Positions 19,924 through 40,489 of a stretch of 64,000 nt of DNA are shown piece after piece. The number at the start of each line of letters is the position of its first letter. Within the stretch, counting starts at the first letter, position 1. The position numbers were made by a program, and so were the translations under genes. Source of the stretch: Bacillota bacterium (GTDB lineage: Bacteria; Bacillota; Sulfobacillia; Fermentithermobacillales; Fermentithermobacillaceae); contig JBMNKF010000002.1 of assembly GCA_050952065.1 (NCBI GenBank), positions 309,123 to 373,122 on the forward strand, written 5' to 3'. The notes under the pieces are model-generated. The model made no database searches. It was not told the DNA's origin and saw nothing but the letters and a program-made list of their open reading frames with translations.

Positions 19924-21369
19924 TTGCCTCGAGTGCGCAGGAGGGATTCCGTGAGGGCCGTTGTAACCGACGCTAGACTGCGCGTGGCTGTCAGCATCAT
20001 CAGATCTCTGGGTGAAGCCGGGGTTTCAGTCGTTGCTGCCGAAGCGTCAGGCACCCGGAATGTCTTAGGCTACTACTCTAAGTTCACCTCTTACCGGTTG
20101 AGGTTGAGTCATTCGGCCAGGACGGCTCCCTCCGCCGCTGACCTGAAAGCGCTTCTAGAGGCCGCAGGTGAAGACGGTGTCGTTGTGCCGACCTTCACTT
20201 CTATGGTGGAACTCCTGTCCAGGCACGCGGAAGAAGCTTCTACCGACGGGACTCGCGCCGAAAGGGCCCACCCCGGAAGAACCGGCACTGGAGGAACCTT
20301 GGCCGAAAGAACGTACATCGAACGCACTCTTGCCAAAGCATCACACGTCCAGAGAACCCGCTTCAAAGAAACCCGGAACCAGAATCTTCTCCAGGCCCGT
20401 GAAGGAGACGATATCCCAAGTCTACCCGGGGCGAGCGGTCCTCGTTTCTTGGTTCCTCCGCTGTCATCGTTTCGGATAAGTCACGACAAGGCCCAATGCT
20501 TCCGTTTGGCCAAGAGTCTGGGCGTGCCTGTTCCCGAGACACGTTTTCCTAGGGATGAAGAAGCAAGCCTTGACTATGCCGCGGATGACGGAAAGGACAC
20601 AAAGTGGGCAGAACGCCTACCATATCCTGTTATTATCAAGTACAGGTCCGGTGAGGATCTGGGGCTTCCTGCGGCCCAGCGATACTGTATCGCAAGGTCG
20701 CCCGTAGAAGCGCTGCAAAAGTATGGCGAGATGGACGCCATCCAAGAAAGCCCCCTAGTTCAGGAATACGTGGAGGGCGAGGACTGGGGAGCGGCGCTCC
20801 TCTACGACTGGCAGTCGCGACTAGTGGCTGCATTCACGTACAAGAGCATCCGCGAACGTCCGAAAGGAGCCGGGCCAACGGTTTACGCTGTGTCGGAATC
20901 CTGCCCCGAACTGGTGGAATATAGCCACCGCGTGCTCTCGGCCCTCAGATGGAGAGGTGTGGCTATGCTCGATTTCCGCAAGGGGCGAGACGGGAAGTTC
21001 CGGCTTCTTGAAATAAACCCGCGGTTTTGGGGGAGTATTGCGTTGTCGATTCTGGCGGGAGTGGACTTCCCTATGTTGTATTACAGATGCTGTCTGGGTG
21101 AGGACATTGCCTCTCGCTCTCATGGTACTTGGCCGCTCTTCCAGGAAGACGGCGTCAAGGTCCGCTTCTTCCCTCAGGACTTTTTGTCCCTTGCCCAGTA
21201 CGCGAAGCACGCCGGAAACACCGCCTTACGCAGTATGGGGTATGTGGCACGGGAAGGGTTTAAACTGCTAAACCCGGGGCTGAAGGATGGGCTGTTGAGC
21301 CTTTCGGATCCACTGCCCGGTTTGGCGTACTTGGTAGGAGGTGCGTTTTCTAGACATGGCCGGACCTAG
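19924..21369 (+). CDS. ATP-grasp domain protein with a ~70-aa low-complexity insertion
   Basis: Pre-ATP-grasp N-terminus (RAVVTDARLRVAVSIIRSLGEAG) and ATP-grasp C-terminal motifs (LLEINPRFWGS). The start is uncertain (19924 or GTG 19951). Confidence 0.65.
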   Translation: MPRVRRRDSVRAVVTDARLRVAVSIIRSLGEAGVSVVAAEASGTRNVLGYYSKFTSYRLRLSHSARTAPSAADLKALLEAAGEDGVVVPTFTSMVELLSRHAEEASTDGTRAERAHPGRTGTGGTLAERTYIERTLAKASHVQRTRFKETRNQNLLQAREGDDIPSLPGASGPRFLVPPLSSFRISHDKAQCFRLAKSLGVPVPETRFPRDEEASLDYAADDGKDTKWAERLPYPVIIKYRSGEDLGLPAAQRYCIARSPVEALQKYGEMDAIQESPLVQEYVEGEDWGAALLYDWQSRLVAAFTYKSIRERPKGAGPTVYAVSESCPELVEYSHRVLSALRWRGVAMLDFRKGRDGKFRLLEINPRFWGSIALSILAGVDFPMLYYRCCLGEDIASRSHGTWPLFQEDGVKVRFFPQDFLSLAQYAKHAGNTALRSMGYVAREGFKLLNPGLKDGLLSLSDPLPGLAYLVGGAFSRHGRT

Positions 21370-22750
21370 AGAGATTTATCGAAGAATCAAGAACATGCGC
21401 CTATCTCACCGCATACATGCTGTGCGAAGGATCAACAGGGTAGCCCCGGTACCAGGGCGCAGAGTGGTAGCCATAACCTTTGACGACGGCCCGTGCGCCG
21501 CTCCCGCACGGCCCGGCTCGGAGCCCCTCACTTTGGGCATCCTCGAGGCCCTCCGGAAGTACAGGGCCAAGGGCACTTTTGACATTATAGGAACTACACA
21601 GTTCAAATACCCTGACAGAAAAGGCCCTACCGGCGGGCCGTACTGGAACGGGGTGAAATATGACCACTATCCCGAGTTCGGTGCTGATCGGTTGGCAGGC
21701 GCAGTGAACCAGCCCGACCTGGTTAAGAGGATAGTTGGGGAAGGCCACGAGCTGTCCAATCACGGGTTCACTCATGCCCCCTTTGGGCCATGCAGCTATC
21801 CGTATGCGTCTAGGCGATATCTGCCGGGGTTTGATGCCGTCCTTTGCGACTTGGTGGCTTTGGATGTATTGGTGAAGGATCTTACCGGTATCAAGATGCG
21901 CCTGGGTAGGCCGGCTCATTACATAGACAAGACGGTGGACGGCAGGGATGCGTTCGATGCTTACCGCGCTCTAGACTATCTCTATTTGGGAGCCTCGTTC
22001 GACGGAGGTGGATGGATGGCATCCAGCGGCGACTTCCATCAGGATGTGGAGGATATGGTGCGTCCCCTCGAGTCCACTCTGGCTTCAGATCCGGACAGTC
22101 TGAATGGCGCGATTATCTTCCACAAGGACGGGTACAATATGTCAGCCCAATGCCCTGCGCTGGAGGGATTGCGGCGGCAACTGGAGGTCTTGCGACGGTA
22201 CGACTATGAGGTTGTGACTGTGTCGGAACTCTGCCAGATGTCGCGATTCACCGACATTGGGCCGGATGATCCGCTATATGCCCCGCTTGAAGCTATGCTT
22301 AAGGAGGGCTACTTAGTAACTTACGCCGACAATTGCGTGAGGCCCGAAAGAAGAATAACTGTGCGCGAGTTGGGACTCATGTGCGTCCCTATGGGGGTGC
22401 AGAGGTGGCAGGGGTGTTCGTCTGGATCGTTGGCGGCGGCGAGTGTTGTTGACCGTGGCGATGCTGCTGTTGGCAGCGACTTGTGGCCGAGATGGGCTTC
22501 GCAGTCTATTCCTCAAATGCTGTCTCGAGTCTTTCTTGGTGGGCGTGTGACGGAGCGGTTTCAGGGCATTCGTCTGGACGACCTGGCCGCAGCCTGCCGC
22601 CAGTTTGTTGATGCCGCGGTTAAGGGGGATGACGAACGGCGGCGAAGGCTTTTTCTGTTGGATTCTGTAGGGCAGCCCACATTCGGTCATCAACCGGCCA
22701 ATAGGGGAGACGCCATACGGTTTCTGTCGGCCGCGCTGGTTGGCGTCTAG
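21356..22750 (+). CDS. Polysaccharide deacetylase (CE4/NodB homology) with a C-terminal extension
   Basis: VVAITFDDGP and HELSNHGFTH motifs. A GGTAGGAGG RBS precedes ATG 21356. Overlaps the ATP-grasp gene end by 14 nt. Confidence 0.75.
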   Translation: MAGPREIYRRIKNMRLSHRIHAVRRINRVAPVPGRRVVAITFDDGPCAAPARPGSEPLTLGILEALRKYRAKGTFDIIGTTQFKYPDRKGPTGGPYWNGVKYDHYPEFGADRLAGAVNQPDLVKRIVGEGHELSNHGFTHAPFGPCSYPYASRRYLPGFDAVLCDLVALDVLVKDLTGIKMRLGRPAHYIDKTVDGRDAFDAYRALDYLYLGASFDGGGWMASSGDFHQDVEDMVRPLESTLASDPDSLNGAIIFHKDGYNMSAQCPALEGLRRQLEVLRRYDYEVVTVSELCQMSRFTDIGPDDPLYAPLEAMLKEGYLVTYADNCVRPERRITVRELGLMCVPMGVQRWQGCSSGSLAAASVVDRGDAAVGSDLWPRWASQSIPQMLSRVFLGGRVTERFQGIRLDDLAAACRQFVDAAVKGDDERRRRLFLLDSVGQPTFGHQPANRGDAIRFLSAALVGV

Positions 22751-22757
22751 CGGCGTG

Positions 22758-23096
22758 TAGTGGAAAACTGCATAGGAGGGTCTCGCCGCATGATGCATGG
22801 TGCGTCGGTCTGATCCATCTGTTGCAAAACCTGCAGCCATCCGCCTCGTCCGACGCAAGAAATGTATCGGTCCGCTTCACCCGGTGCAATATCTGCATCT
22901 ATCTACCTAGTCCGACACAATAGATGTATGGGTCCGCTCCGTCCGGTGCAAAACCTGCATCAACCCGCTCCGTCCGACGCAAGAAATGTATCGGTCGGCT
23001 CCATCCGACGCAGAAACTGCAGCAATCCACCTCGTCCGACGCAAGAAATGCATCCATCCATCTCGTACATCACAAAAACTGCATCGCCCCGCTGGA
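22758..23096 (+). repeat. Tandem array A of a 31-nt repeat (8 clear units 22849-23096 plus ~3 degenerate units upstream)
   Basis: Hand-phased units, e.g. TCCGACGCAAGAAATGTATCGGTCCGCTTCA / CCCGGTGCAATATCTGCATCTATCTACCTAG / TCCGACACAATAGATGTATGGGTCCGCTCCG ... The period is exactly 31 from 22818 to 23096. Confidence 0.9.
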
Positions 23097-23136
23097 CATG
23101 CGGACGCCTTCTTGGCCTCCACGCCGAAACAACTAG

Positions 23137-24108
23137 CTAAAGAAACTTGTTTGGATCCATGAGGTACTTTATTGGGACTTCGGCGCTTACGCCGTCCGCA
23201 TATACGAGTATCAGCAAGACCTCGGAAGGAGTGGGATAATCATCCAGCCTGCCTTCGAAGACCTGAATCTCTCCTTCTGCTTGAGGCGTCGGGGCCTCGA
23301 TGGTCCGTTGAGACATGAGTGTTACTTCCTTGACCACCAGCTCCCGGTCTCGTACCTTGAGCGAGGCTCCCTGAAGTCGGTAGTGATAGTGTTCCGGCTT
23401 TGGGTTCTCGTGGACCGTAATGTCAAAAGCGAACCCTTCCTCGGCAGCCCGAATGTCCACCGAGACGGGAGAGACAAGGGCGCTCGCTTCTTGTTTGATG
23501 TGGAGGGAAAATAACTCGGTGGTTCTCATCTCACGTTCATCGGTCATCGTTACGTAGTATTCGTACTGCCCCGTACGATACATCGGTGAGGATTCGGACA
23601 CAACTGATTCTCTCTTCTCTGGAGGCTCTGAATCATTATTGCTGGAATACGCTATCGATACCAGAGGTTCTGGCTGGATGGTATGGTCAAACGTAATCCT
23701 AAACCCGCCTCCGCCTGTGCTTTCAGCGGGATAGGGGGTGAAATCAGAGCCTCCGTGCTCCCTGAGGTACAGGGTGACTGAGGCACCCACCGGATACTCC
23801 CTTACCTGCCAACTGAGGGTTACAGGCTGGAATCCGTTTGAAGGCTCGCCGGGAGTGACGTCCACTTTGGATATCCATCGCGCTTCCTCGCGGAGATTCT
23901 CGACTGTGTTGCCGACCCAGTCAAGTCCATGGTCTAGGGAGTCTCGCAGGTGCGATACCTCTTTGCGGGCTTCGCCAATCGCGGTCGATAGGTCTCCTAT
24001 CCGGGACAGAGCGTATATGTTGAGGCAGATGCTAAGGGCCAAGAGCCCTACCATCAGGAATCTGGACCGTTCCACTCGCCATCCCTCCATAGTGATTGCT
24101 GTCCACAC
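23137..24108 (-). CDS. Hypothetical single-pass membrane protein (N-terminal TM, short coiled-coil, beta-rich extracytoplasmic domain)
   Basis: 323-aa ORF. TM FLMVGLLALSICLNIYAL, then a heptad-like DLSTAIGEARKEVSHLRDSL. No recognisable catalytic motif. The start could also be Met7 (24090). Confidence 0.6.
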   Translation of the reverse strand: MWTAITMEGWRVERSRFLMVGLLALSICLNIYALSRIGDLSTAIGEARKEVSHLRDSLDHGLDWVGNTVENLREEARWISKVDVTPGEPSNGFQPVTLSWQVREYPVGASVTLYLREHGGSDFTPYPAESTGGGGFRITFDHTIQPEPLVSIAYSSNNDSEPPEKRESVVSESSPMYRTGQYEYYVTMTDEREMRTTELFSLHIKQEASALVSPVSVDIRAAEEGFAFDITVHENPKPEHYHYRLQGASLKVRDRELVVKEVTLMSQRTIEAPTPQAEGEIQVFEGRLDDYPTPSEVLLILVYADGVSAEVPIKYLMDPNKFL

Positions 24109-24171
24109 CTCTTCCGTGCTGAAAACCTACTGCTTTGTAGGTTAGGCAATGCCCGCTCTCGCAATTTCATC

Positions 24172-24197
24172 AATATATCACCACAATATATCACCAC
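24172..24197 (-). promoter_or_regulatory. Perfect 13-nt tandem duplication carrying extended -10-like elements upstream of the 23137..24108 gene
   Basis: The + strand reads AATATATCACCAC twice. On the coding (minus) strand this is GTGGTGATATATT GTGGTGATATATT, i.e. TGaTATATT twice, 65-90 nt upstream of the start codon. Confidence 0.4.
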
Positions 24198-24233
24198 ATG
24201 GGCAGTAGAATGCAAGTGGGGCAAGAAGAAAGC

Positions 24234-24667
24234 CCCGACGCAAGAAATGTATCGGTCCGCTCCACCCGGTGCAAGAACTGCATCCATCTGCCTCGTCCGA
24301 CGCAAAAACTGCATCGGTCCGCTTCACCCGGTGCAATACCTGCATCTATCTACCTAGTCCGCCACAAGAAATGTATGGGTCAACTCCGTCCGACGCAAGA
24401 ACTGCATCCATCTGCCTCGTCCGACGCAAAAACTGCATCGGTCCGCTTCACCCGGTGCAATACCTGCATCTATCTACCTAGTCCGCCACAAGAAATGTAT
24501 GGGTCCGCTCCGTCCGACGCAAAAACTGCATCAATCCGTCTCGCACATTACAAAAACTGCGTCGACCCGCAGCCCGATGCGAAAAATGCGACGAGTCGAG
24601 AGCCCCGACGCAAGAACTGCATCAACCCACTCCCTCCGACGCAAAAACTGCATCCACCCAGACATCC
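24234..24667 (+). repeat. Tandem array B of the same 31-nt repeat (10 clear plus 4 degenerate units) with a 124-nt higher-order structure
   Basis: Units were phased by hand at 24234, 24265, ... 24637. 24296-24357 is identical to 24420-24481 (62/62). 24265-24388 vs 24389-24512 differ at ~5 of 124 positions. Orientation and subfamily order match array A. Confidence 0.92.
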
Positions 24668-24800
24668 ACCCGGTCGAAAAGCCCCCAAAAACCGGCTGCA
24701 GTCTCAAGAAAGCGTCCTTCCAGTCCACGACTAGCTGGAAAGGGATAACTGCCAGTGGCGGAGAATAGCCTGGAAAACTATCGTCTATCATTTCGCCGCT

Positions 24801-25541
24801 TTGGGGGAATTTCTATTGGACGAACCTATCCTTCGAACCGTAAACTTAACCAAGTCTTTTCATTTGGGTCAAACAATTTACGCAGTGCAAAACGTCAACA
24901 TGGTCGTAGACAAAGGCGAGTTTGTGGCCATAATGGGCCCATCGGGCAGCGGCAAGAGCACCTTGCTTTCGCTTTTGGGCGGGTTGGATAGGCCGCAAAG
25001 TGGTGATGTGCTCCTTTCGGGCCAGCGCTATTCGACGCTGTCCGAAGGCGGTCTCGCCAGAATCCGAAGGTACCAGGTGGGGTTCGTGTTCCAGTTCTTC
25101 AACTTGATCGCACACCTAACTGCCCTCGAGAACGTGGTTCTACCCATGCGGTTCGGTAAAATGAGCCGACGCGCTATGCTGGCACGAGCCGACCACCTTC
25201 TGGAAACGGTTGGCCTCAGCCATAGGAAGAACCACAAGCCCCTGGAGTTGTCCGGAGGGGAGCAACAGCGGGTCGCCATTGCAAGGGCTTTGGCCAACGA
25301 ACCGGCCATCATATTGGCGGATGAGCCCACAGGCAACCTTGACTCCAAGACATCCCGGGAGATTGGCGAGGTATTCCATAGGCTCAATGAAGAGAACGGT
25401 CAGACCTTTGTGGTCGTTACCCATGACGCCTCACTAAGAAAGTGGGCGCACCGGACCATTTGGATGCTGGATGGACAGATCGAAAAGATTGAACAGGGCG
25501 GGCTCGTTAACCAAGATTTGGGCGACGCCCAGGGAGGCTAG
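24801..25541 (+). CDS. ABC transporter ATP-binding protein, MacB/LolD/FtsE-like (copy 1)
   Basis: Walker [11 protein letters not shown]-loop, signature [15 protein letters not shown], Walker [13 protein letters not shown]-loop VVTHD. TTG start. Confidence 0.9.
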
Positions 25542-27275
25542 ATGATGGCCAAATCGATTCTTCATATCCAGGTGGGCAACTCAATCACGAGGGCTCAGGC
25601 GCTGCAGGTGGGCGATGGCAAGATTACCCCAAAGGCATACGGCCTGTGTCCCACTCCTTCCTTGACCCTAGAAGAAGACAGAACTCAAGGTATCGGCTTT
25701 GCCATCCAACAAATGGAGGAGCGGATGGCAGAGCAGGGCGCCTCTTTGGAACCCCAAGAGATACTGGTTACTTTGAGCGTTGGGGGGGAGCCCAGCGCGG
25801 TATGCGCAGGGGTCGTCAAGGGGATTTCGGGCGAATCGGCCAAGAGAGCTGCCTTGTCCGCAGGTGCCACAGTCACCGATCTCATCTGCATAGATGATGG
25901 GCGGGAAGACTTTCAGCGAGTGTCTGACTTAAGCAGGCAAGACATATCCGTGGTGGTTCTGGCAGGCGGAGTAGATGCAGAAATAATGGAATCGGGAAGT
26001 CACCAACTCCTGAGCATCGCCAAGATACTGGCTCAAGGTCTCCCCAAGAAGCATGGCAGCCAGAAAAAGGTTCCTTTGATCTACGCTGCATCGCTGGACG
26101 CACGGGAAGAAGTCATGAGGATCATGGGCGATGACATCGAGATAATCTGGGCAGACAACGTCCGGTCTAGACTGGAGGAAGAGCATCTGGAGTCAGCCCG
26201 AAACGCTGTGGTGGATGCTTTCGCCCAAAGCGTTGGCTTAGATGGCAGGTTCAGTGGGTTAGGGCGTCTGGGTTCTCCCCAAGTGCTTCCTTCGGGCTAT
26301 GCAAAAGGGATGGGCGTTGAGAGACTCTACAGTGAGAGTAAAGAAAACGTGTTGGGTTTCTCTTTGGATGGAGACTCTGTACAGGTGTTCTCCTATATCG
26401 GAGGAGTCTTCACCCGTACCGTGACATCGATTGATGCAGTGGATTCCCGCAAGGTTGCCAAATGGTTGCCAACGCCGAGCCTCACCGGGAATCTTGAGGA
26501 GATGTTGGCCAACCTCAGACTTCACCCATGGATTGTGCCGGCCGGCTGGGACGAATTAGCGGTTTACCTGGCGTTTTGGAAAGAAGTCATCAGAGAAGGA
26601 ATCGCCGAACACAAGGAAAGCGCCATCGAACTTCGGGGAATCCAAAGACCGAGAAAGATAGATGAGACTTTTGAGGTTAGAGTTTCAGGCGGCGATACCA
26701 TACTCAAGGCCCACGACATACGCAAGGTAGTGGTGACGGGTGTTCTGTCCCACATCCTTTCGGAGAGGGCTCTGCTTTCCCTGATAATGGATGGTGCGAA
26801 CCTCAGCGGCGTCACCGCAATCTATCGAGATCCGTGGGATGTGCTGCCGGTTGTAGGGTCGTTATCCCCGGGCAACGTGAGCATCGAGGATCACCTGAAA
26901 TCCTTGGGGGTTCTGGTGGGACCCGGTCAGGACAGAGACCGAGTTGGCACCAGGTGGGTTTTCTCGGGCACAGGGTCTTCTCTTGAGCCCTTACCTGTGA
27001 GACCCAACGAGATAGTGCCCGTTGATCTGAATGGCGGCGGCGAGATCGACATTGTCTTGGAACCTTCGCGAACCGAAGACCTGGGAAACGGTAAGGGCCA
27101 TAAGGTGTGGGCGAGAGTGGCATCGGGTTTCACCCAAGTCTATCTCGACGGTCGCCCTCGAACCATGATCCGGTCTGTGGAGAGAATTGCTGCTCAAGAT
27201 ATTCTCAAGTGGTATGGAAACTTGGGAGTGTTCCCTCAGGAAGTCCTATCCGCTTGGTCGGGAGGTAGGGCCTGA
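25542..27275 (+). CDS. GlmL/MutL-like actin-fold (ASKHA) protein with degenerate nucleotide-binding motifs (copy 1)
   Basis: 577 aa, clearly paralogous to 32266..34083 (ESAKRAALSAGATVTDLICIDD vs ESAYRAALGAGAIVCDVLSLDD; KVPLIYAASLDAREEV vs KIPLIYAGNVDARDLV). However, the phosphate-1 motif is QVGNSITR instead of DVGSTTTK. The ATG directly abuts the upstream stop. Confidence 0.7.
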   Translation: MMAKSILHIQVGNSITRAQALQVGDGKITPKAYGLCPTPSLTLEEDRTQGIGFAIQQMEERMAEQGASLEPQEILVTLSVGGEPSAVCAGVVKGISGESAKRAALSAGATVTDLICIDDGREDFQRVSDLSRQDISVVVLAGGVDAEIMESGSHQLLSIAKILAQGLPKKHGSQKKVPLIYAASLDAREEVMRIMGDDIEIIWADNVRSRLEEEHLESARNAVVDAFAQSVGLDGRFSGLGRLGSPQVLPSGYAKGMGVERLYSESKENVLGFSLDGDSVQVFSYIGGVFTRTVTSIDAVDSRKVAKWLPTPSLTGNLEEMLANLRLHPWIVPAGWDELAVYLAFWKEVIREGIAEHKESAIELRGIQRPRKIDETFEVRVSGGDTILKAHDIRKVVVTGVLSHILSERALLSLIMDGANLSGVTAIYRDPWDVLPVVGSLSPGNVSIEDHLKSLGVLVGPGQDRDRVGTRWVFSGTGSSLEPLPVRPNEIVPVDLNGGGEIDIVLEPSRTEDLGNGKGHKVWARVASGFTQVYLDGRPRTMIRSVERIAAQDILKWYGNLGVFPQEVLSAWSGGRA

Positions 27276-28426
27276 TGATGTTGTATGCTGTGAGCAAGCC
27301 GAGAGCCATTAGGAACGTAGAGGTTGTGAGGCTTCGTCCTTTCAGTTCAGTGGGGCAAGCGGAGGTGGCTCCGGGCGCAGAAGTAACATGGGATAGCCTT
27401 GTAGGTACTTACTCCTCAAGAAAGAGGATTAGGAGGGTGCGGGTTGAGGCTTCCAATGACACCATGGTCGCCACAGTCCTGGTTCAAGAAGGTCAGCTGG
27501 TGAAACGCGGCGAGGTCTTGGCCTATTATTCTTATCTCTTCGGCCTGGGGTACACAGAGTATGTGTCTCCTTGTGATGGGGAGGTAATGTCTATAAACCC
27601 AGTGATAGGAGCGATTCTCATCAAAGAGTCGCCCATGGAGTTAAGAAGCAACCTCCCAGGCGTTGTGGCCAGGTCCGAAGACGCCATCGGTGTCTGGGTG
27701 AGGTCTTTCGGAGACCTCACAGAGGGCGTCGCAGGCGCCGGTTATGGCCGCTCAGGCATCTTAACTCTGAAGGCGACTCATATCGGTCCCCAGGATCAAG
27801 GCAAAGTCATCGTGGTGGAGCGGTCTCCAACCCAAGAACTCATTGAAGAATGCCTTCGATACCGCGTGGCCGGGCTTGTGGTTGGGAGCATTAGGCAACG
27901 CCTCTTTGAGTGGTACAAGGGGATTGCCCAGTCTCTGGATTGGACCGAGTTCCTAGCGCGGTATTGGGCTAGAGACGCCAAGAAACAAGAGGACGCGCCG
28001 CCTGCCACCGAAATTGTCCCGGCACTGGTGGTGACCGAGGGTTTCGGTGACATTCCCATTAATGCGAAAGCTCAAGAAATGTTGGCAGAGCATGAGGGCG
28101 AGAGGATCTTCATCGACGGGTCTATGGATTGGGCTCAAGAGCCGTGGGTTTTTGCCCCCATCAACCCAGGGCAGCCTTCGGCACGTCATTTGTCGCCGGG
28201 TGCACTTGGGGAGGATCACGGGTTGGGCCGACAACTATCCCAGGTTGTGCCCGGCACCAAAGTCAGGATCCTCGGCATGTCGCGGACGGCCTTGATAGGT
28301 ACTGTGATGGAGATTTCTCCCAATATGGTCCTGGAAAACGGGATAGTGACACCGGGAGCCAAGGTGGTCACTGACGGTGGGGAGACACTCACGGTATCGT
28401 TCCTAAACATCCAGGCCGTCAACTGA
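27275..28426 (+). CDS. Uncharacterised cytoplasmic protein: barrel-sandwich-hybrid (lipoyl-like) domain, central domain, KOW/SH3-like C-terminus (copy 1)
   Basis: 383 aa, no TM or signal peptide. Lipoyl-like halves VLVQEGQLVKRGEVLAYY ... VSPCDGEVMSI. Paralogous to 34085..35509 (ALVVTEGFGDIPINAKAQEMLAEHEGERIFIDGS vs TAVIMEGFGKVPMSQDTWDLLVSLEGKVASIDGT). ATGA overlap with the upstream gene. Confidence 0.6.
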   Translation: MMLYAVSKPRAIRNVEVVRLRPFSSVGQAEVAPGAEVTWDSLVGTYSSRKRIRRVRVEASNDTMVATVLVQEGQLVKRGEVLAYYSYLFGLGYTEYVSPCDGEVMSINPVIGAILIKESPMELRSNLPGVVARSEDAIGVWVRSFGDLTEGVAGAGYGRSGILTLKATHIGPQDQGKVIVVERSPTQELIEECLRYRVAGLVVGSIRQRLFEWYKGIAQSLDWTEFLARYWARDAKKQEDAPPATEIVPALVVTEGFGDIPINAKAQEMLAEHEGERIFIDGSMDWAQEPWVFAPINPGQPSARHLSPGALGEDHGLGRQLSQVVPGTKVRILGMSRTALIGTVMEISPNMVLENGIVTPGAKVVTDGGETLTVSFLNIQAVN

Positions 28427-28606
28427 CACAGGCCATCAATAAAGAAAAGAAGTGTAGATAAGGTTTCGGACGAAACAAGAAAAGAACAGAGATTCTTCAA
28501 GGATCCGAAAGGGCTGAAGGTCAAGGGCTTCGCCAAGTTGGCTGACCTTAGCCTTCTTGTTCTCGTTGGATCCTCTGTTCAGATGCAACCTTGTTCTTGC
28601 TGACCT

Positions 28607-28703
28607 CTTCGTTCCGGTTAGCCACTTCCACCGGCCCTCCGACCACTCTCACGCGATTTTCGTGGTTACCGCTAAGCCCTTCGTTCCGGTTCAACACCTC
28701 CAC
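28607..28703 (+). repeat. Two 25-nt direct repeats inside the only long intergenic gap of the operon
   Basis: CTTCGTTCCGGTTAGCCACTTCCAC (28607-28631) and CTTCGTTCCGGTTCAACACCTCCAC (28679-28703), 21/25 identical, 72 nt apart. Confidence 0.7.
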
Positions 28704-28773
28704 GAGGCGTTGATGGCCCGGCAATTCTGGAAGGGATGCGCTTTCTCGATGACGAAACCACGCTATTGCAGAG

Positions 28774-30288
28774 GTGAATGAGGTGGACCTTGTCCGTCTC
28801 GGATTGAGAAGCGCAAAGAGAAACTGGAGCCGCACCGCCTTGGCTATGACAGCCATGGCACTTGCTGCCATGACGTCAGTGTTCTCAGGAGTTGTTCCCT
28901 TGGGTTATGTCAAGGGGCACGCTCTTGCCGAGCGGCTTTTCGTGGGAGGAGACATTCTCGTTCTCCCCATTGGTGGTCCCGTTGACGCAAGATGGGATAG
29001 TCACGAGGAATCTCAACTATTCTGGAAACCGTGGGAGGGGCGGGATTGGCAATCTTCCGCACTGTACTTCTTGCCCGGTCTAAGAACCAAGGGGTATGTA
29101 TCGAACCGCGAAACATCATGGCGCGCCTTTGACCCGAACCCGGTTATAGATGCGGTTAAGAGGGTTCAAGGGGTCAAGGATGTGGCCCCTTACTACGCTT
29201 TGCCCTGCATCCTGACGGTTGGCGGCCAGAGTTCAGCCGCTGTGCTGCGGGCCTGGGATACGAGCAACAGCGGAGACTACCTGTCCGATTTCGGTCAGGA
29301 GTTCGTGGTTGCAGGAGAGCCTCTGGATGCCTCTTCACCCAAAATGTCTTGCCTGTTTCCGCTTCAGGGCACTTCCCTAGATGCGGTTAACATCAATTCA
29401 GTGGATCCTCTGAGTACCATCCAGATAACTGTGCCGCGATTGACGTATGGGTCTTATTCCGGAGAGGGGCCTATCGGGTTCAAGTGGGACCAGGCCGTAA
29501 CGGACTCTCTGCAAGTGTCAGGCATCTACCAAGTCCAGGTAGGTTTGGCGCCATCCCCTGCAGCCGATTCTCCCAGTGCGCCCACTGAGATGGAGCCTTT
29601 GTATTGGGAGCGTCCTGAGATCATAGTATCTTACGACACTTTCAGGCGGTTTGTATCCTATTCCGAACCTACGCTTGAGTACGCCGATAAACCGGACGAT
29701 TCGGTTGACTTGGAACCGGGGCAGTTTCCTTCGGGTTTCTCGGTGTACCAGGTGGCCATAACTGTGGATCGGATGGCCACAGTCAAGAAAGTAGCCGAAG
29801 ACGTGGCTTTGGCGCTTGGCTCCAGTTTCGCCGTAATCCCCATACCAGAGCTTACGCAAATGAAAGGCAGAGGGGCGCTCATGACCATCGCTGGCCAAGA
29901 CGCTCGAGAGTTCTCCCAACTTCTCTTTTTCACCCTTTCATCAGTCATAGTTGCCGGCACAATCTATGTCATATTGACCCAAGAGCGGCGAAAGATCGGT
30001 CTACTTCGAGTAGTGGGAGCCACCGGCAAAGATATCTTGGCGTATGCTCTGACTTTGTGCGCATATGTGGCTCTTACAGGTTCCGCTATTGGGTTTGGGG
30101 TAGCGAAGATCCTGTCGTTGTTGGCCGTCTTCGCAGCCGATGTGACTTTCTCTCAGTGGGTGGAGCAGACAGTCAAAGACGCTTTGCAAGTCTTCGGACT
30201 GTCTCTTGGAATCCCTTTGGTCTTGGGGCTCGCCATCGGGGTCTGGGCGGCCCGCATTCCCAGTGCGGAGGTGCTAGAACGTGGATGA
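28774..30288 (+). CDS. FtsX/MacB-type ABC permease with a ~340-aa extracytoplasmic domain (copy 1)
   Basis: 504 aa. TM1 near aa 21-44, a long hydrophilic domain, then a three-TM FtsX-like C-terminus (LLFFTLSSVIVAGTIYVILTQERRKIGLLRVVGATGKDIL...). GTG start. Confidence 0.8.
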   Translation: MNEVDLVRLGLRSAKRNWSRTALAMTAMALAAMTSVFSGVVPLGYVKGHALAERLFVGGDILVLPIGGPVDARWDSHEESQLFWKPWEGRDWQSSALYFLPGLRTKGYVSNRETSWRAFDPNPVIDAVKRVQGVKDVAPYYALPCILTVGGQSSAAVLRAWDTSNSGDYLSDFGQEFVVAGEPLDASSPKMSCLFPLQGTSLDAVNINSVDPLSTIQITVPRLTYGSYSGEGPIGFKWDQAVTDSLQVSGIYQVQVGLAPSPAADSPSAPTEMEPLYWERPEIIVSYDTFRRFVSYSEPTLEYADKPDDSVDLEPGQFPSGFSVYQVAITVDRMATVKKVAEDVALALGSSFAVIPIPELTQMKGRGALMTIAGQDAREFSQLLFFTLSSVIVAGTIYVILTQERRKIGLLRVVGATGKDILAYALTLCAYVALTGSAIGFGVAKILSLLAVFAADVTFSQWVEQTVKDALQVFGLSLGIPLVLGLAIGVWAARIPSAEVLERG

Positions 30289-31009
30289 GTGGCGAGGACC
30301 CATACTCAAGTGTCACGAGCTTTCCAGGTTCTATGCGGTCGGAGACGGTTTGTTCGCCCTGTCTGGCGTCGAGATGGAGGTATGGGCAGGGCAGTTCGTG
30401 GTCATCATGGGGCCTTCGGGGTCTGGCAAGAGCACTCTACTGAATATACTGGGTGGCATCGACCGGCCGTCCCACGGCGAAGTGATCCTTTGCGGCCGGA
30501 AGTACTCGAGAATGTCAGAAGATGAATTGGCCATCCTCAGACGCACCCAGGTGGGAATGGTCTTTCAGTTTTTCAACCTTCTCCCCGAACTGACTGCTGC
30601 CGAAAACGTGGGCATTTCCCTGAGACTGGCGGGGGCCCGCGAGTCTGAGACCATGACAAGGGTTACCCAACTCATGGAGGCAGTGGGGCTTGCGGGTAGG
30701 TCCAATCACTATCCCATGGAACTTAGTGGGGGCGAACAGCAGAGAGTCGCCATTGCCAGGGCTTTGGCACCCAAACCTGCCGTTGTGTTGGCCGACGAGC
30801 CCACCGGTAATCTCGATTCCAAAATGTCCAAATCCATCATGGAGCTTTTCGCCAAGTTCAACAGGGAAGAAAAGCAAACCTTCGTAGTGGTGACTCATGA
30901 GCCCGGTTTCCAGGAGTATGCAGACACTGTTATCCACCTGGTAGACGGTGAGATCAAGGAAATGTGCCATGGAGGTCGACGAGTGTCGGGAAAGGAAGTT
31001 CTGTCGTGA
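30281..31009 (+). CDS. ABC transporter ATP-binding protein, MacB/LolD/FtsE-like (copy 2)
   Basis: Walker [10 protein letters not shown], signature [15 protein letters not shown], Walker [13 protein letters not shown]-loop VVTHE. 8-nt overlap with the upstream permease. Confidence 0.9.
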
Positions 31010-32208
31010 GGACAACGATCCGGCCTGCCGTGACATGGTCTTTAGCCGCCAAAATGGTGGTAAGGCGGCTTCGCAGAGATCCTTCCGCCGCCTTGCTGGT
31101 GTCGTTGTCGGTGACTCTGACTGTGGCGCTTTGTGTTTTCATTGTATCTATGGTAACCCTTAGTGGTTGGCGCACCATGGCTAGAACGGAGACAATGGAA
31201 CTTCCGTACGATGCCGTAATCTTGTTTTCGGAGCATCAAGATGCTGTCCGTGCCCAAGACTCGTTGGGCAGATTACGGAATTCATATTCTATCCACAGAT
31301 TTCCTTTCGTAGAAGTTGATACGGAAATCGGTCCGCTCTTTATCGTTGGAATGGAACTCAATCTTCCAGGAGACGTCATCGTGCTGAACGTCCGAGACGC
31401 TGATTTGGTGAGAGAGATGGAGATGGATCCCCGGCGAAAAGGAAGCTTGGACGCGTGGCCGCTGGAATCAGGGATCTCCGTTCAGGGTGCGAGGTTAACA
31501 TGGTCCACGATCTGGTCTTGCCAGGATGTTGACGCGAGCGACGATGTGCTGCGTCGAACCGTGACATCCCTTCCGGTTCCGCCGGGCTGGGCGGTGGTTG
31601 ATACAGAGCGTCTCAACGGTGTGGCCGGGGTCCGAACGGGGCTGGGGCTAGAGTTCGTAGGGGATCCACAGCACATCGACAAACCCAGGGAGCTCTCTGA
31701 TCTCCGGCGCCAATATCCGGATGCGGTGATCTTTGGCCCGTGGTCAGGGGAATCTTTCGTGAGCAAAGAGCTGGTGAGGCCAACGCTTCTGTGGCAAACA
31801 GTCTACTGCCTCGGGGCGCTGACAGGCACAGCGGCCATATCATGTGTGTTGACCGCATCTTTTCTGGGCAGGAAACGGTCGTTGGGAATTCTCAGGGTCT
31901 TGGGCGGGACTAGGGGAGATCTTCTCCGCGTGGTGTTGGTCGAAGCGTTATACTTAGGTGTCTTAGGTGTCCCGCTAGGGTCCGTTGTTGGATTTCTGGT
32001 ATCTCGCTTTTTCTTAGACGCGTGGGTTGTGACTTTCGCTACTGCACTTGTTCCCGTTGGGCTTGGGGTGGCCGCCATCATAGCGGGAGCTTCTCTTCCA
32101 ATACGCTTGGTGAGGAACGCCACCTGTGACCAGTTGCTCAACAACCGGCCCGTTTACGCTATGTCCAATCCCTCGTGCGCCCAGTGTGGTCTGTGCGGCG
32201 GCTTCTAG
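31006..32208 (+). CDS. FtsX/MacB-type ABC permease (copy 2) with a Cys-rich C-terminal tail
   Basis: GTG 31006 overlaps the ATPase stop (GTGA). TM1 (LLVSLSVTLTVALCVFIVSMV), a ~220-aa external domain, and an FtsX-like C-terminus (GRKRSLGILRVLGGTRGDLL...). Ends ..NPSCAQCGLCGGF. Confidence 0.8.
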   Translation: MRTTIRPAVTWSLAAKMVVRRLRRDPSAALLVSLSVTLTVALCVFIVSMVTLSGWRTMARTETMELPYDAVILFSEHQDAVRAQDSLGRLRNSYSIHRFPFVEVDTEIGPLFIVGMELNLPGDVIVLNVRDADLVREMEMDPRRKGSLDAWPLESGISVQGARLTWSTIWSCQDVDASDDVLRRTVTSLPVPPGWAVVDTERLNGVAGVRTGLGLEFVGDPQHIDKPRELSDLRRQYPDAVIFGPWSGESFVSKELVRPTLLWQTVYCLGALTGTAAISCVLTASFLGRKRSLGILRVLGGTRGDLLRVVLVEALYLGVLGVPLGSVVGFLVSRFFLDAWVVTFATALVPVGLGVAAIIAGASLPIRLVRNATCDQLLNNRPVYAMSNPSCAQCGLCGGF

Positions 32209-32265
32209 GTTGCAGAGGGAATTCGTGGGTCTATGGAGAGCGGTTCTTGAGAGGAGGAACGGGGG

Positions 32266-34083
32266 ATGATTGAGAGAATCCTGGCGGCTGACGTCGGAAG
32301 CACTACCACCAAAACTGTTCTGTTTGAGAAGGCGGAGGATGGATGGAGACTCCTGGGAAAGACGGTCGCTCCCACGACGGTGGAGGCTCCCGACTTGGAT
32401 GTGATGATTGGCCTCAGAAATGCAGTGGCAAAACTGGAGAAGCGTGTAGGCAGGCGTCTTCTGGATGGTGTCAGGCTCTTGACACCGGCAAGAGAAGACA
32501 CGGGAATAGACGTTTTCGTGGCCACCTCCAGCGCAGGAGGCGGACTCCAGATGCTCGTAACGGGCCTGATCAATACGATTACAGCCGAGTCTGCTTACAG
32601 GGCTGCCCTAGGGGCCGGCGCCATCGTGTGCGACGTGTTGTCCCTGGATGACAACCGCGCCATTGTTGAGCGTATCGAGTCTATTAAGAGGATCAGACCG
32701 GACATGGTCTTGGTGACCGGAGGTACCGACGGAGGAAATATCTCCGACGTGGCTGCCATTGCCGAGTACCTGGCTATGGCCAATCCTTCGCCGAGGTTCG
32801 GTGAGCATTTCAAGATCCCTCTCATATATGCGGGGAACGTTGACGCCCGTGACTTGGTAACCGAAGTGACAGGCGAGGTCATGGATATTAGTTACACAGA
32901 CAACATCCGGCCGGTACTCGAGAAAGAGGTTCTGACCCCGGCGCGGGAGGAGATCCATCGCCTCTTCTTGGAACATGTGATGATGCAAGCACCCGGGTAC
33001 AAGACGCTCTTGTCCTGGACGGGAGGATACGTCAAGCCTACCCCGGTGGCCGTAGGGGATACACTTCAGAGTCTGTCTGAGACCAGAGGTCACGATGTAC
33101 TTGGAGTGGATATCGGGGGCGCCACCACAGATGTATTTTCAGTGATTGACGGCACATTCCATCGAACTGTGTCGGCTAACCTGGGCATGTCTTACAGCAC
33201 CGGCAATGTGCTCATGGAAGCCGGGATAGAGTCGGTTGTCAGGTGGCTGCCTTGGGCGCCTGACGAGAACATGGTCAGGAACTGGGATTTCAATAAGATG
33301 ATCAGGCCAACCACTTTACCTCAGACCCTTGAAGAACTAATCCTTGAGCAAGCCATAGCCAGAGAAGCCCTGCGCTTATCCTTTGAGCACCACCGTTCAC
33401 TCACGAGAGGGCTCAAGGGCGTTAGGCAAGAGCGCAACGTGGGAGACGTGTTCAACCAGACCGGAACCGGCAATACTCTGGTTAACCGGTTGGCTATAGG
33501 CTTGATGGTCGGATCTGGGGGAGTTCTTTCATACGCCCCAAGGCGCCAGCAAGCTGCCATGATGATGATCGACGCTTTAGAGCCCGAGGGCGTGACCGAT
33601 ATTATGGTCGATAGCCAGTTCTTGTTGCCCCACTTGGGCGCCATTATGGAAGCCGACGCATCTGCCGCCCAGGAGATCTTGGAGACTGAGGCTTTAGTGC
33701 CCCTTGGGACGGTCATCGCGCCCGTTGGTCCGCAGGTTGCCCCTGGAATCGAAATAGCCAAAGTGGAGATCGACGGTGAGGTGCATTGGGTGGTCTCCGG
33801 TGAGCTTCAGGTTGTTCCGCTTTCTGCCGGCCAGAGCGTGACGGTGAACGTTACTCCTAAAAAGGAGTTCACGGTGGGCAAGGCATCGGGGGTCCCGGTC
33901 ACTGCCAGAGCTATGGGAGGGACGGTTGGAATTATCCTGGATGGCCGGGGGCGCCCCATAGCGATGCCCGTGTCTGAAGATGAGCGAATTTCGGCAGTCC
34001 GGAAATGGCTCATGGCTATGGATGTCTATCCAAGCGCAATCTTGGAGTCATTTGCGGATGTCTTGGCCAAGGAGGCGAACTAA
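32266..34083 (+). CDS. GlmL/MutL-like actin-fold (ASKHA) ATPase with intact motifs (copy 2)
   Basis: 605 aa. Phosphate-1 ILAADVGSTTTKTVLF, TGGTDGG, phosphate-2 VLGVDIGGATTDVFSV, adenosine MVGSGGVLS. The N-terminal pattern matches the GlmL/MutL (glutamate mutase L) family as I remember it. Confidence 0.75.
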   Translation: MIERILAADVGSTTTKTVLFEKAEDGWRLLGKTVAPTTVEAPDLDVMIGLRNAVAKLEKRVGRRLLDGVRLLTPAREDTGIDVFVATSSAGGGLQMLVTGLINTITAESAYRAALGAGAIVCDVLSLDDNRAIVERIESIKRIRPDMVLVTGGTDGGNISDVAAIAEYLAMANPSPRFGEHFKIPLIYAGNVDARDLVTEVTGEVMDISYTDNIRPVLEKEVLTPAREEIHRLFLEHVMMQAPGYKTLLSWTGGYVKPTPVAVGDTLQSLSETRGHDVLGVDIGGATTDVFSVIDGTFHRTVSANLGMSYSTGNVLMEAGIESVVRWLPWAPDENMVRNWDFNKMIRPTTLPQTLEELILEQAIAREALRLSFEHHRSLTRGLKGVRQERNVGDVFNQTGTGNTLVNRLAIGLMVGSGGVLSYAPRRQQAAMMMIDALEPEGVTDIMVDSQFLLPHLGAIMEADASAAQEILETEALVPLGTVIAPVGPQVAPGIEIAKVEIDGEVHWVVSGELQVVPLSAGQSVTVNVTPKKEFTVGKASGVPVTARAMGGTVGIILDGRGRPIAMPVSEDERISAVRKWLMAMDVYPSAILESFADVLAKEAN

Positions 34084-34084
34084 C

Positions 34085-35509
34085 ATGGCAGTATCTTGCA
34101 ACATTAGGGTCATCCCCAGGACCCGTCTCAAGAAAGCCCGGAGCCTCTCTGTGCCTGGTGACGTCCTTGTCAAGGTTGGGGATACGGTGGAGCCCGATAC
34201 AGTTCTGGCCAAGACCGATTACGTACGCGGTAACCCGAGGATCGTCGATCTCAATGCCGAACTGCGAATGAAGCTCACGCCCCAAATGGTTGACAAGGTC
34301 ATGCTGAAGAAAGTTGGAGACAGTGTAACGGGTCAGGAGCCAATCGCAAGGTACCAGAAGGGTTTCTGGTCAGAGATAGTCGAGGTCAAAGCTCCCTGCG
34401 ATGGGACTATCGAATACATTTCCCGCACTCAGGGCCGTGTCATTGTGCGTGAAGACCCAAGATCATCAAAACCCCTCTGCATCTGTCCGGCTGCTCAACG
34501 CCTGGGTGTCTGGCCGTGGATGATCCGAATGTTCACCCACGTCAAGGAGGGTGACGTTGTTCACGAGGGCCAAGTGCTGGCGGCTGCCGAGAAAAGCGGT
34601 TTCATCGGCGAGGCAACCATGGATTACGTCTACGCTCCAATGAGCGGGGTGGTCGAGAAGATTTGCACCAAAACCGGGAGTATCACTATAGTCAAGCCCA
34701 TCAAGCCCGCAAGGGTACTGGCCCACATTGCGGGTGTGGTCACCCAAGTGATCCCCTTCGAAGGAGCAGTCATCGAGTCCATGGGGGCTTATCTTGAGGG
34801 CGTGTTTGGGATCGGCGGAGAGAAAGCCGGCGCATTAGTTGTAGCTACCCGGGGGCCGCTAGATGAATTGGACGAAGACGGAGTGGCACGTCTCGGGGAC
34901 CTCGGCGGCAAGATTGTCCTTGCGGGAAGCATGGTCACTTTGGGGGCCCTTCGGAGGCTCAGGGATTCTGGGGCCCTTGGGCTCATAGTCGGCGGCCTCA
35001 ACAACTTGGACTTGGTTCGGTTTCTGGGTAAAGAGATCAATGTTGGGATAACCGGCCACGAAGATGCGGGGTTGACAGCAGTCATAATGGAAGGGTTCGG
35101 GAAGGTTCCCATGAGCCAGGACACCTGGGATCTCTTGGTTTCTCTTGAGGGCAAAGTCGCTTCAATCGATGGGACGACGCAGATACGGGCAGGGGTCATA
35201 CGTCCGCAAATTCTTGTGAGCGAAGGCACTCCGCCTTCTGACCAGAGTGACGCCGACGAGTCAATCGTGGGTGATGTATACGGCGAGGCCCATGAGGCGA
35301 TCCTTCACCCTATGACCAACATTGTTCCCGGCGACCGGGTCAGATGTGTTCGTGCCCCGTACTTCGGACTGTGGGGAGTCGTGCAGGAGGTTCCAGAGGA
35401 GCCCTTGAAGGTCGATTCTGAAGCCATCATGGAGGTTGCCAAAGTGCGGCTAGATAACGGCGAGACCGTCTTGGTCGCAGAAGCCAATCTGGAAGTGTTC
35501 AGGTACTGA
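34085..35509 (+). CDS. Uncharacterised cytoplasmic protein: two barrel-sandwich-hybrid domains, central domain, KOW/SH3-like C-terminus (copy 2)
   Basis: 474 aa from ATG 34085 (AAGGAGG RBS; starts 2 nt after the upstream stop). VLVKVGDTVEPDTVLAKT...VKAPCDGTIEYI and HVKEGDVVHEGQVLAAAE...YAPMSGVVEKI. The C-terminal GDRVRCVRAPYFGLWGVVQEV..VLVAEANLEVF is KOW-like. Confidence 0.6.
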   Translation: MAVSCNIRVIPRTRLKKARSLSVPGDVLVKVGDTVEPDTVLAKTDYVRGNPRIVDLNAELRMKLTPQMVDKVMLKKVGDSVTGQEPIARYQKGFWSEIVEVKAPCDGTIEYISRTQGRVIVREDPRSSKPLCICPAAQRLGVWPWMIRMFTHVKEGDVVHEGQVLAAAEKSGFIGEATMDYVYAPMSGVVEKICTKTGSITIVKPIKPARVLAHIAGVVTQVIPFEGAVIESMGAYLEGVFGIGGEKAGALVVATRGPLDELDEDGVARLGDLGGKIVLAGSMVTLGALRRLRDSGALGLIVGGLNNLDLVRFLGKEINVGITGHEDAGLTAVIMEGFGKVPMSQDTWDLLVSLEGKVASIDGTTQIRAGVIRPQILVSEGTPPSDQSDADESIVGDVYGEAHEAILHPMTNIVPGDRVRCVRAPYFGLWGVVQEVPEEPLKVDSEAIMEVAKVRLDNGETVLVAEANLEVFRY

Positions 35510-39854: not shown

Positions 39855-40489
39855 TCGGAAGACCCACCACCTGACGCTTGGAGTGTTGGTTTCAGGTAGA
39901 GGTACAAACCTCCAGGCGATTCTCGACGGGTGCCAAGACGGCACAATTCCTGCCAAAGTTGGCGTAGTGATTTCCAATAGGCCCGAGGCGCTTGCCCTTG
40001 ACCGGGCCAGGGCCAAGGGGGTTCCCGTTTTCACCGTTTCACACAAAAAGTATGGATGCTGGCCCGATACTCGCCCACGGTACGAGAAGGAAGTAGTGGA
40101 GATTTTGAAATTCTTTGGAGTTGAACTAGTAGTCTTGGCCGGATACGATAGGTTGGTAGGCGAGGATATGCTAGAGGCGTTTCCAAACCGCATCATCAAC
40201 ATACACCCGTCCCTATTGCCCTCCTTTCCCGGATTGTCTGGCCAGAAAGATGCCTTAGAGTATGGATGCAAGGTCTCGGGCGCCACGGTGTTTTTCGTGG
40301 ACCCGTCTATGGACGGCGGGCCCCATAATAGCCCAGGAGGCTGTCCCAGTGCTAGAGGACGATACTGTTGAGAGTCTTTCGGCTCGAATCCTGGAGGCGG
40401 AACACCGGATTCTACCCAAGGCAATCACTCTAATAGCAGAGGGTCGAACAGTGATTGAAGGTCGCAGAGTGAGGATCTTAAAACCGTGA
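39847..40489 (+). pseudogene. purN: Phosphoribosylglycinamide formyltransferase, one frameshift
   Basis: LGVLVSGRGTNLQAI...IINIHPSLLPSFPG...GATVFFVDPSMDGGP, then the frame changes at the CCCC run 40321-40324. The continuation IIAQEAVPVLEDDTVESLSARILEAEHRILP is in the +1 frame (ORF 40262..40489). Confidence 0.85.

Follow-up and report, generated by a model that had tools for sequence, protein, structure and literature searches.

Two repeat arrays flank a single gene

Within a 64,000-nucleotide (nt) stretch of a Bacillota genome (contig JBMNKF010000002.1, positions 309,123–373,122; hereafter the window), two arrays of a 31-nt tandem repeat, designated A and B, lie on either side of a single minus-strand gene encoding a protein of 312 amino acids (aa) (23137–24075). 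This group is bounded on the left by a plus-strand polysaccharide-deacetylase-family gene (21356–22750; Pfam PF01522), whose exact protein is present in 10 contigs, and on the right by the conserved leader (24733–24815, plus strand) of an operon encoding an ABC ATPase and a GlmL/MutL-like ATPase. The arrays are probably intergenic minisatellites, and their length varies between nearly identical strains.

Tandem Repeats Finder, run on the window, recovered both arrays (A, 22805–23093; B, 24235–24543), each with periods of 31, 62 and 124 nt and, in array B, with 92% matches at 124 nt. When laid out in 31-nt register, the units of both arrays run head to tail in a single orientation. Array A proper (22819–23097, plus strand) is built from nine 31-nt units, arranged as two diverged 124-nt copies followed by a terminal ACATCACAAAAACTGC unit. 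It is preceded by two degenerate leading units (22757–22818, plus strand) that keep the register, have a partly recognisable core and align with the leader of array B. A sequence-only reading of the window had placed the start of array A directly after the deacetylase stop codon; the register is indeed present there, but the first 60 nt hold degenerate units only. At the same left edge, positions 22788–22818 carry an inverted partial core, GCATGATGCATGGTGCGTCGG, complementary to TCCGACGCA of the units, which is the sole reversed fragment seen. Array B consists of a degenerate leader (24203–24234), recognised from the register and from its alignment with array A, a main body of 11 units (24235–24574) that includes two 124-nt higher-order copies, and a distal end (24575–24667) of three more degenerate units, one of them 30 nt long, all on the plus strand. 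Clear units number nine in A (plus two degenerate leading ones) and 13 in B (plus one degenerate one), about 22–25 in total, in keeping with the roughly 25 same-orientation units and the 124-nt higher-order period proposed earlier.

The two 124-nt copies of array B (24265–24388 and 24389–24512) differ at exactly five positions, where about five had been estimated. The identity of 24296–24357 with 24420–24481 (62 of 62 nt), also described before, holds and forms part of a longer exact repeat of 111 nt (24271–24381 and 24395–24505). This repeat pair, spanning 24271–24505 on the plus strand, would offer a substrate for the gain or loss of 124 nt. The two 124-nt copies of array A are identical at 94 of 124 positions. 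The units follow the same subfamily order in both arrays, as the sequence-only reading had it, with 22850–22942 of array A matching 24421–24513 of array B at 86 of 93 positions.

The 19-nt core CCGACGCAAGAAMTGYATC, with up to three mismatches allowed, occurs 14 times in the window against 0.01 occurrences expected, and never outside the array locus; a two-unit pattern occurs 15 times against none expected. The repeat–spacer alternation of clustered regularly interspaced short palindromic repeats (CRISPR), already discounted from the sequence, is absent: all 31-nt units are mutually homologous, unique spacers are lacking, and none of the 38 window open reading frames (ORFs) scanned with Pfam contains a cas domain.

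Length alleles of both arrays in independent assemblies

The locus was recovered from 10 independent samples processed with different assemblers. The window itself carries a short array A and a long array B. The same combination is found in a JGI assembly (3300062814, contig L135), which differs by one single-nucleotide polymorphism (SNP) in 7,395 nt. Array A is likewise short and unchanged in contigs L009 (SRR31061296), L140 (SRR13001968) and L137 (SRR31065934; array B outside the contig), so that an identical array A is reproduced in four independent assemblies. Contigs L009 and L140 end within array B at 24300, as does L010 (SRR31066179), in which array A is partly covered. From sample ERR12982444, one contig (L011) ends at 24300 and another (L130) begins at 24476. 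Logan contigs are assemblies at k = 31, and positions 24300 and 24476 correspond exactly to the first and the last 31-mer that is unique next to the exact repeat of 111 nt, as predicted for branch points. Because the contig ends coincide with these 31-mers, the long B allele is present in these samples as well.

A shorter array B is found in two samples. In a contig from a biogas fermenter (L128, ERR2019978; array A outside the contig), array B is exactly 124 nt shorter, with no SNPs, and in sample SRR31905293 contig L129 again has an array B exactly 124 nt shorter, with two SNPs in 2,712 nt. The short allele takes its GT from copy 1 and its CG from copy 2, a combination absent from the long allele and seen in L128, a contig assembled at k = 127. 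Since reads of the long allele could not yield this combination at k = 127, the short B allele is a real recombinant allele. It is probably ancestral to the long one.

Array A varies in the same manner. A 224-kb JGI contig (Ga0534105_00568, sample 3300053716, L136) contains an array A that is longer by 248 nt, or eight more units, together with a long array B; its flanks, the 312-aa gene and array B are identical to those of the window. Inside the expanded array there is an exact repeat of 171 nt, and its period of 248 nt has 93% matches by Tandem Repeats Finder (224 of 248 by direct count). A second contig from SRR31905293 (L141) ends at 22853, the branch point predicted for an L136-type allele of array A, and a contig from ERR10905743 (L138; array B outside the contig) stops in array A at 22879, which indicates a further variant of this array. 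Both arrays are independently multi-allelic among genomes that are otherwise about 99.9–100% identical. The sequence-only reading had proposed recent homogenisation by unequal exchange, and this is now shown directly by the length alleles, which differ in nature by exactly 124 or 248 nt. The locus combines head-to-tail non-coding units with copy-number polymorphism between close strains, both of which mark a variable-number tandem repeat (VNTR).

In contig L136, the ABC ATPase gene also contains seven SNPs and three single-G indels that cluster in a stretch of about 450 nt (L136 7160–7340; window 25001–25445), representing either a recombination tract or long-read homopolymer errors.

The segment bordered by the arrays

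The closest genome found, a Bacillota metagenome-assembled genome from an anaerobic membrane bioreactor (L122, ~79% nucleotide identity), shows perfect synteny on both sides of the locus. Its homology to the window ends at the deacetylase stop codon (22750) and restarts at 24733 (aligned with L122 6195), and the slot in between is occupied by an M20 peptidase gene. A more distant relative (L124) has the ABC gene just 97 nt behind the deacetylase gene, on the same strand. Because the slot differs in both relatives, the segment 22751–24732, comprising array A, the gene and array B, is lineage-specific. The shared strand and 97-nt spacer of the deacetylase gene and the ABC/GlmL-like operon in L124 mean that the cassette interrupts a probable operon.

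Neither repeats nor a unit-like motif occur at the syntenic loci of L122 and L124, and no single-copy progenitor of the unit, even with four mismatches in 19, was found at these loci or in the ancestral context of the enclosed gene. A strict two-unit DNA pattern gave no match in 185,579 GTDB representative genomes. A loose version gave three chance matches only in IMG/VR and 105 stretches in JGI metagenome contigs, of which those inspected are unrelated AT-rich 31-nt satellites or chance matches; the JGI collection evidently lacks the samples of L135 and L136, and its silence weighs little. The AT-rich 31-nt tandem repeats (L057 1796–3001, L014 1402–1589 and L082 3–163, with up to 39 copies) are probably eukaryotic satellites, which surfaced because any 31-nt array that matches the core once also matches the two-unit pattern.

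Over its whole length of 380 nt, array A aligns with the short B allele (374 nt) at 70% identity overall; the five central units are 88–91% identical, the degenerate leader and tail correspond, and the longest exact match between the two arrays is 27 nt. Because array A aligns over its full length with the short B allele, the arrays are paralogues rather than split halves: colinear whole arrays that already had the four-unit higher-order structure. The idea that the gene was inserted into a once-continuous array, raised in the sequence-only reading, is not supported, since the two arrays align in parallel. Recombination between A and B could delete or amplify the cassette, but is expected far less often than exchange inside one array.

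Among the plus-strand genes, an ATP-grasp gene and the deacetylase gene are followed by genes for the ABC ATPase, the GlmL/MutL-like ATPase, a barrel-sandwich protein and an FtsX permease; upstream, the minus strand carries guaB. The ABC gene starts with TTG at 24816, and its exact 241-aa product is found in a database record. Array B is located between two divergently transcribed units and array A between convergent gene ends.

Several observations concern the surroundings of the segment. Upstream of the ABC operon in L122 (6130–6200), three (A/T)AAGGGA(Y) motifs are spaced 17–18 nt apart, the last of which is kept in the window as GGAAAGGGATAA at ~24738. The motifs may have a part in the operon's regulation. 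Positions 24801–35509 of the window contain two consecutive paralogous modules with differing gene order, each composed of an ABC ATPase, a GlmL/MutL-like (PF13941) ATPase, a barrel-sandwich (HlyD/RnfC_N-like) protein and an FtsX permease. It is unusual for a GlmL-like ATPase to be coupled to MacB-type transporters. Farther downstream, purH (AICARFT/IMPCHase, 40486–41916) is broken by at least three frame switches between ~41000 and 41250, and is either a decaying pseudogene in an otherwise intact pur operon or the product of assembly indel errors.

The enclosed gene encodes a predicted membrane-anchored protein

The enclosed gene is likely to start with GTG at 24075, after a GGAGGG ribosome-binding site; the frame is open to 24108, and the gene call on contig L009 also gives 312 aa. 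Pfam, PHROGs and NCBIfam contain no family matching the protein. The AlphaFold2 model (pLDDT 79.7) has a long N-terminal helix, consisting of a transmembrane anchor and a coiled coil, followed by β-sandwich domains, and its Foldseek matches are Ig/FN3-like chains. The product is thus predicted to be a membrane-anchored Ig-like protein rather than a Rep protein, a regulator or a recombinase. This predicted fold rules out a model in which iterons flank a rep gene. The iteron or replicon flavour given to the locus in the sequence-only reading is lost on other grounds as well: the arrays sit within conserved chromosomal synteny, and blastn of the whole cassette against plasmids (PLSDB) and phages (INPHARED) gave no match.

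Eleven homologues of the protein were found, ten of which share 38–75% identity with it. The loci fetched for six of them (those listed, P0002, P0004–P0006 and P0008, being 62–75% identical) show a different, conserved context, in which the gene lies upstream of MFS, nitroreductase, metallo-β-lactamase-fold and glpX genes. No array or unit-like motif is present at nine loci carrying homologues. The comparison suggests that the gene was relocated into its present slot. A placement of the ancestral neighbours (MFS, nitroreductase) at 42–45 kb of the window proved wrong; the ORFs there are purD, queT and others. In one relative (L012 2335–3172, L013 1245–2082), a HepT/MNT toxin–antitoxin pair lies between the homologue and the MFS gene; because of this insertion, the homologue/MFS junction is also a variable spot.

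Between the enclosed gene and array B, Tandem Repeats Finder detected a perfect 13-nt direct repeat, CAATATATCACCA, in 2.2 copies (24171–24198). On the minus strand it reads TGATATATT twice, which resembles an extended -10 element, and these elements are a plausible promoter of the 312-aa gene.

Coding and regulatory signals in the arrays

Neither 31 nor 124 is a multiple of three, and the 124-nt copies fall in different frames. A 178-aa ORF spans array B; because the plus strand of this array holds only three stop triplets over all frames, the ORF is a compositional accident. Searched against a database of 5.8 billion proteins, its translation matched the same locus only (L128) and the minus-strand array translation matched nothing. 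The arrays are non-coding, as originally held.

A scan for sigma-70 promoters (-35 and -10 hexamers at 16–18 nt spacing with at least 9 of 12 matches) found no site in either array on either strand. An alternative offered by the sequence-only reading, a stack of weak promoters on the minus strand, is not upheld, since the proposed spacings stay below the scan threshold throughout the arrays. Terminator-like sites were not found in the arrays, and Rfam covariance models gave no match to them at the gathering threshold or at E ≤ 1. Resemblances to sigma-54, Spo0A, SinR, PurR, DnaA-box and CsrA motifs, judged by eye, are partial, and none is consistent across unit subtypes. No regulator, Rep, transposase or cas gene was found among the neighbours. 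Taken together, these results give no hint of a specific function.

A palindromic core in the repeat unit

Each 31-nt unit contains a 21-nt imperfect palindrome, CCGAYGCA-N5-TGYATCGG, in which positions 1–8 pair with positions 21–14 around a 5-nt centre. Over the eight pairs in 22 units, 64% are Watson–Crick, and the two innermost pairs are so in 22 of 22 units; this centre is the best among all possible dyad centres of the unit. The earlier statement that the units lack dyad symmetry was wrong. Among 20 distinct units, positions 7, 8, 11, 14, 15 and 23 are invariant and positions 1–3, 9 and 17–19 nearly so, and positions 4, 10, 20–21, 24, 27–28 and 30 are free. Elsewhere in the window, no isolated copy of the palindrome was found beyond one chance-level match. 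With 10.5 bp per turn, a 31-bp unit makes 2.95 helical turns, and each core is therefore rotated by about 17 degrees relative to the one before. The argument that the conserved core recurs on one face of the helix consequently holds over a few neighbouring units and fails over longer distances.

The palindromic core is the best argument for cooperative protein binding. The units could form an operator- or iteron-like platform, with the 21-bp palindromes as dimer sites and the 31-bp spacing allowing contact between neighbours; such a nucleoprotein array might silence, insulate or tune divergent promoters, with copy number acting as a rheostat. This alternative is unlikely. Every unit contains the core, which alternates with a more variable spacer of 10–12 nt, neither strand is consistently favoured for hairpin formation, as would be the case for a double-stranded site, and the placement of array B between divergent units fits a regulatory role. 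However, no DNA-binding protein is encoded in or beside the cassette, single operator copies are missing from the remainder of the 64 kb, and the arrays are absent from all relatives examined. Array A, between convergent gene ends, has no obvious target, and the angular drift from one repeat to the next means that the same face of the helix is not kept.

Relation to known repeat systems

No sequence relationship of the arrays to any described repeat family is apparent. Among known kinds of repeat, they come nearest to the bacterial intergenic minisatellite or VNTR, exemplified by mycobacterial interspersed repetitive units (MIRUs) and by BrickBuilt, and the testable defining features of this kind are found here. 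MIRUs are intergenic minisatellites (VNTRs) present at about 40 loci in Mycobacterium tuberculosis. Arrays A and B resemble them in having head-to-tail units of tens of bp in one orientation, an intergenic or intercistronic position, a copy number that varies between very close strains and no known dedicated function. They differ in lacking sequence similarity, in their shorter 31-bp unit with a palindromic core, in their four-unit (124-bp) and even eight-unit (248-bp) higher-order structure, and in their restriction to two arrays that bracket one gene.

Short imperfect palindromes in intergenic clusters, with possible RNA hairpin effects, are also characteristic of repetitive extragenic palindromic (REP) sequences and bacterial interspersed mosaic elements (BIMEs), and the imperfectly palindromic unit found here agrees with this. 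REPs occur as hundreds of dispersed copies and alternate in orientation within BIMEs, whereas the present units all follow one another head to tail and are confined to a single locus of the 64-kb window. Iteron arrays flank the rep genes of theta plasmids (P1 incC-repA-incA, F ori2-repE-incC), and iterons are typically asymmetric. The likeness lies in same-orientation arrays of ~20-bp sites on both sides of a single gene, spaced near whole helical turns; unlike iterons, the present units are palindromic, enclose a gene other than rep, and belong to a chromosomal, syntenic locus without plasmid similarity. In their organisation the arrays recall the higher-order repeats of satellites in eukaryotes, for example alpha satellite, in which diverged monomers form a homogenised multi-monomer block that varies in copy number by unequal exchange, but they measure hundreds of bp rather than megabases, reside in a bacterium and have no centromere role.

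BrickBuilt of Porphyromonas gingivalis is a 23-nt minisatellite inside a transposable element of the miniature inverted-repeat type, with 19 dispersed copies, inverted-repeat ends and demonstrated promoter activity (PMC4596501). Like it, the present arrays are species-specific, spacerless, intergenic tandem repeats of a few hundred bp with leader and tail parts; unlike it, they have ends that are not linked by any pair of inverted repeats, no dispersed copy in the 64-kb window and no match to a promoter consensus. On this precedent of 19 copies per genome, A and B could be two insertions of a dispersed non-autonomous mobile element with an internal minisatellite, and their similar length (380 and 374 nt), colinearity and degenerate leader and tail would fit such an origin. 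It is improbable nonetheless. Terminal inverted repeats and target-site duplications are not recognisable at the array ends, no further copy exists in the 64-kb window, six-frame translated searches of protein databases returned this locus only, and GTDB representative genomes, plasmids and phages gave no match.

Folding of the arrays as RNA

On both strands, the folding energies of single units range from -2 to -11 kcal/mol. Units of the 'AC' subtypes have the better fold on the minus strand, those of the 'GT' subtypes on the plus strand, neither strand being favoured consistently. The strand asymmetry of the wobble pairs (36 C·A against 10 G·T) might seem to speak for a minus-strand RNA, but it goes back to a handful of independent events, and for 'GT' units it is the plus strand that folds better. 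Folded whole, the arrays do not stand out on the plus strand (z of -0.7 and -1.0 against shuffles), whereas their minus-strand folds are moderately better than those of shuffled sequences (z of -2.55 for B and -1.66 for A). Their plus-strand C/G ratio of 1.7–1.8 places them among the most C-skewed stretches of the window.

Two functions at the RNA level could be imagined from these properties. In one, the minus-strand gene would carry REP-like strings of hairpins in its 5' and 3' untranslated regions, and these would stabilise its mRNA, in line with the minus-strand folding and with unit hairpins of up to -11 kcal/mol. In the other, the C-rich and unstructured plus-strand RNA would load Rho and insulate the antisense cassette from read-through of the probable operon that it interrupts. 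Taken together they are quite improbable. There is no Rfam match and no terminator-like site, the unit subtypes disagree as to the better-folding strand, and the plausible extended -10 promoter, being downstream of array B, would put this array outside the mRNA.

Also given little credence is a more far-reaching proposal, by which the units are cooperative sites for a putative protein and the paired arrays delimit a nucleoprotein-bounded, recombination-prone gene cassette. If true, an insulator-flanked module of tunable copy number would have moved a surface-protein gene into an operon, and the locus would amount to a bacterial counterpart of satellite-bounded chromatin domains or to a new kind of structure that mobilises cassettes. 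An assembly artefact or a repeat-protein coding region, which might have been suspected from the breakage of short-read contigs at the 111-nt repeat and from the 178-aa ORF, has a negligible probability and is refuted by the recovery from 10 samples with contig ends at the predicted branch points, by the frame-incompatible periods and the stop count, and by the absence of homologous proteins beyond the locus itself.

Discussion

The reading that we prefer, with a probability of roughly 0.6, is that arrays A and B are a pair of hypervariable, lineage-specific intergenic minisatellites (VNTRs) without a dedicated protein or RNA partner. They form the two borders of a segment of ~2 kb (22751–24732) that, in this species only, occupies the slot from the deacetylase gene to the ABC/GlmL-like operon and brings with it the relocated gene of the membrane-anchored Ig-like protein. 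Each array independently gains or loses blocks of 124 or 248 bp, by unequal homologous exchange or slippage between exact internal repeats of 111–171 bp, which exist because the higher-order structure creates them.

Any effect of such minisatellites on their surroundings would probably be indirect. Array B may set the length and geometry upstream of the divergent promoters. Array A may act as a spacer between convergent genes. The arrays may also keep the antisense-inserted gene apart from the interrupted operon. As direct repeats, the two arrays together may also provide an inefficient route to loss or amplification of the cassette.

Three considerations weigh against a neutral minisatellite. 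Conservation within the unit is uneven, with the invariance of positions 7, 8, 11, 14, 15 and 23 and the retention of the palindrome in diverged units of both arrays, and this pattern could reflect selection on a binding site instead of shared descent. The position of two arrays exactly at the borders of a novel segment is striking for neutral DNA. The single-locus status holds for the 64-kb window, and a dispersed family may exist elsewhere in the genome.

As a VNTR, the pair is real but fairly ordinary for a bacterium; its higher-order structure and paired position at the segment borders are unusual, and do not call for a new category. The locus offers a clean bacterial example of higher-order tandem-repeat dynamics, with turnover of 124- and 248-bp blocks between strains that are ~99.9% identical, and constitutes a small model for unequal exchange. 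It also illustrates how short-read assemblies break or differ at such repeats. For the uncultured Bacillota lineage of anaerobic digesters to which this genome belongs, the locus could be used as a high-resolution strain marker. If the palindromic core does bind a protein, a copy-number-dependent regulation of the surface-protein gene and the ABC operon would become testable.

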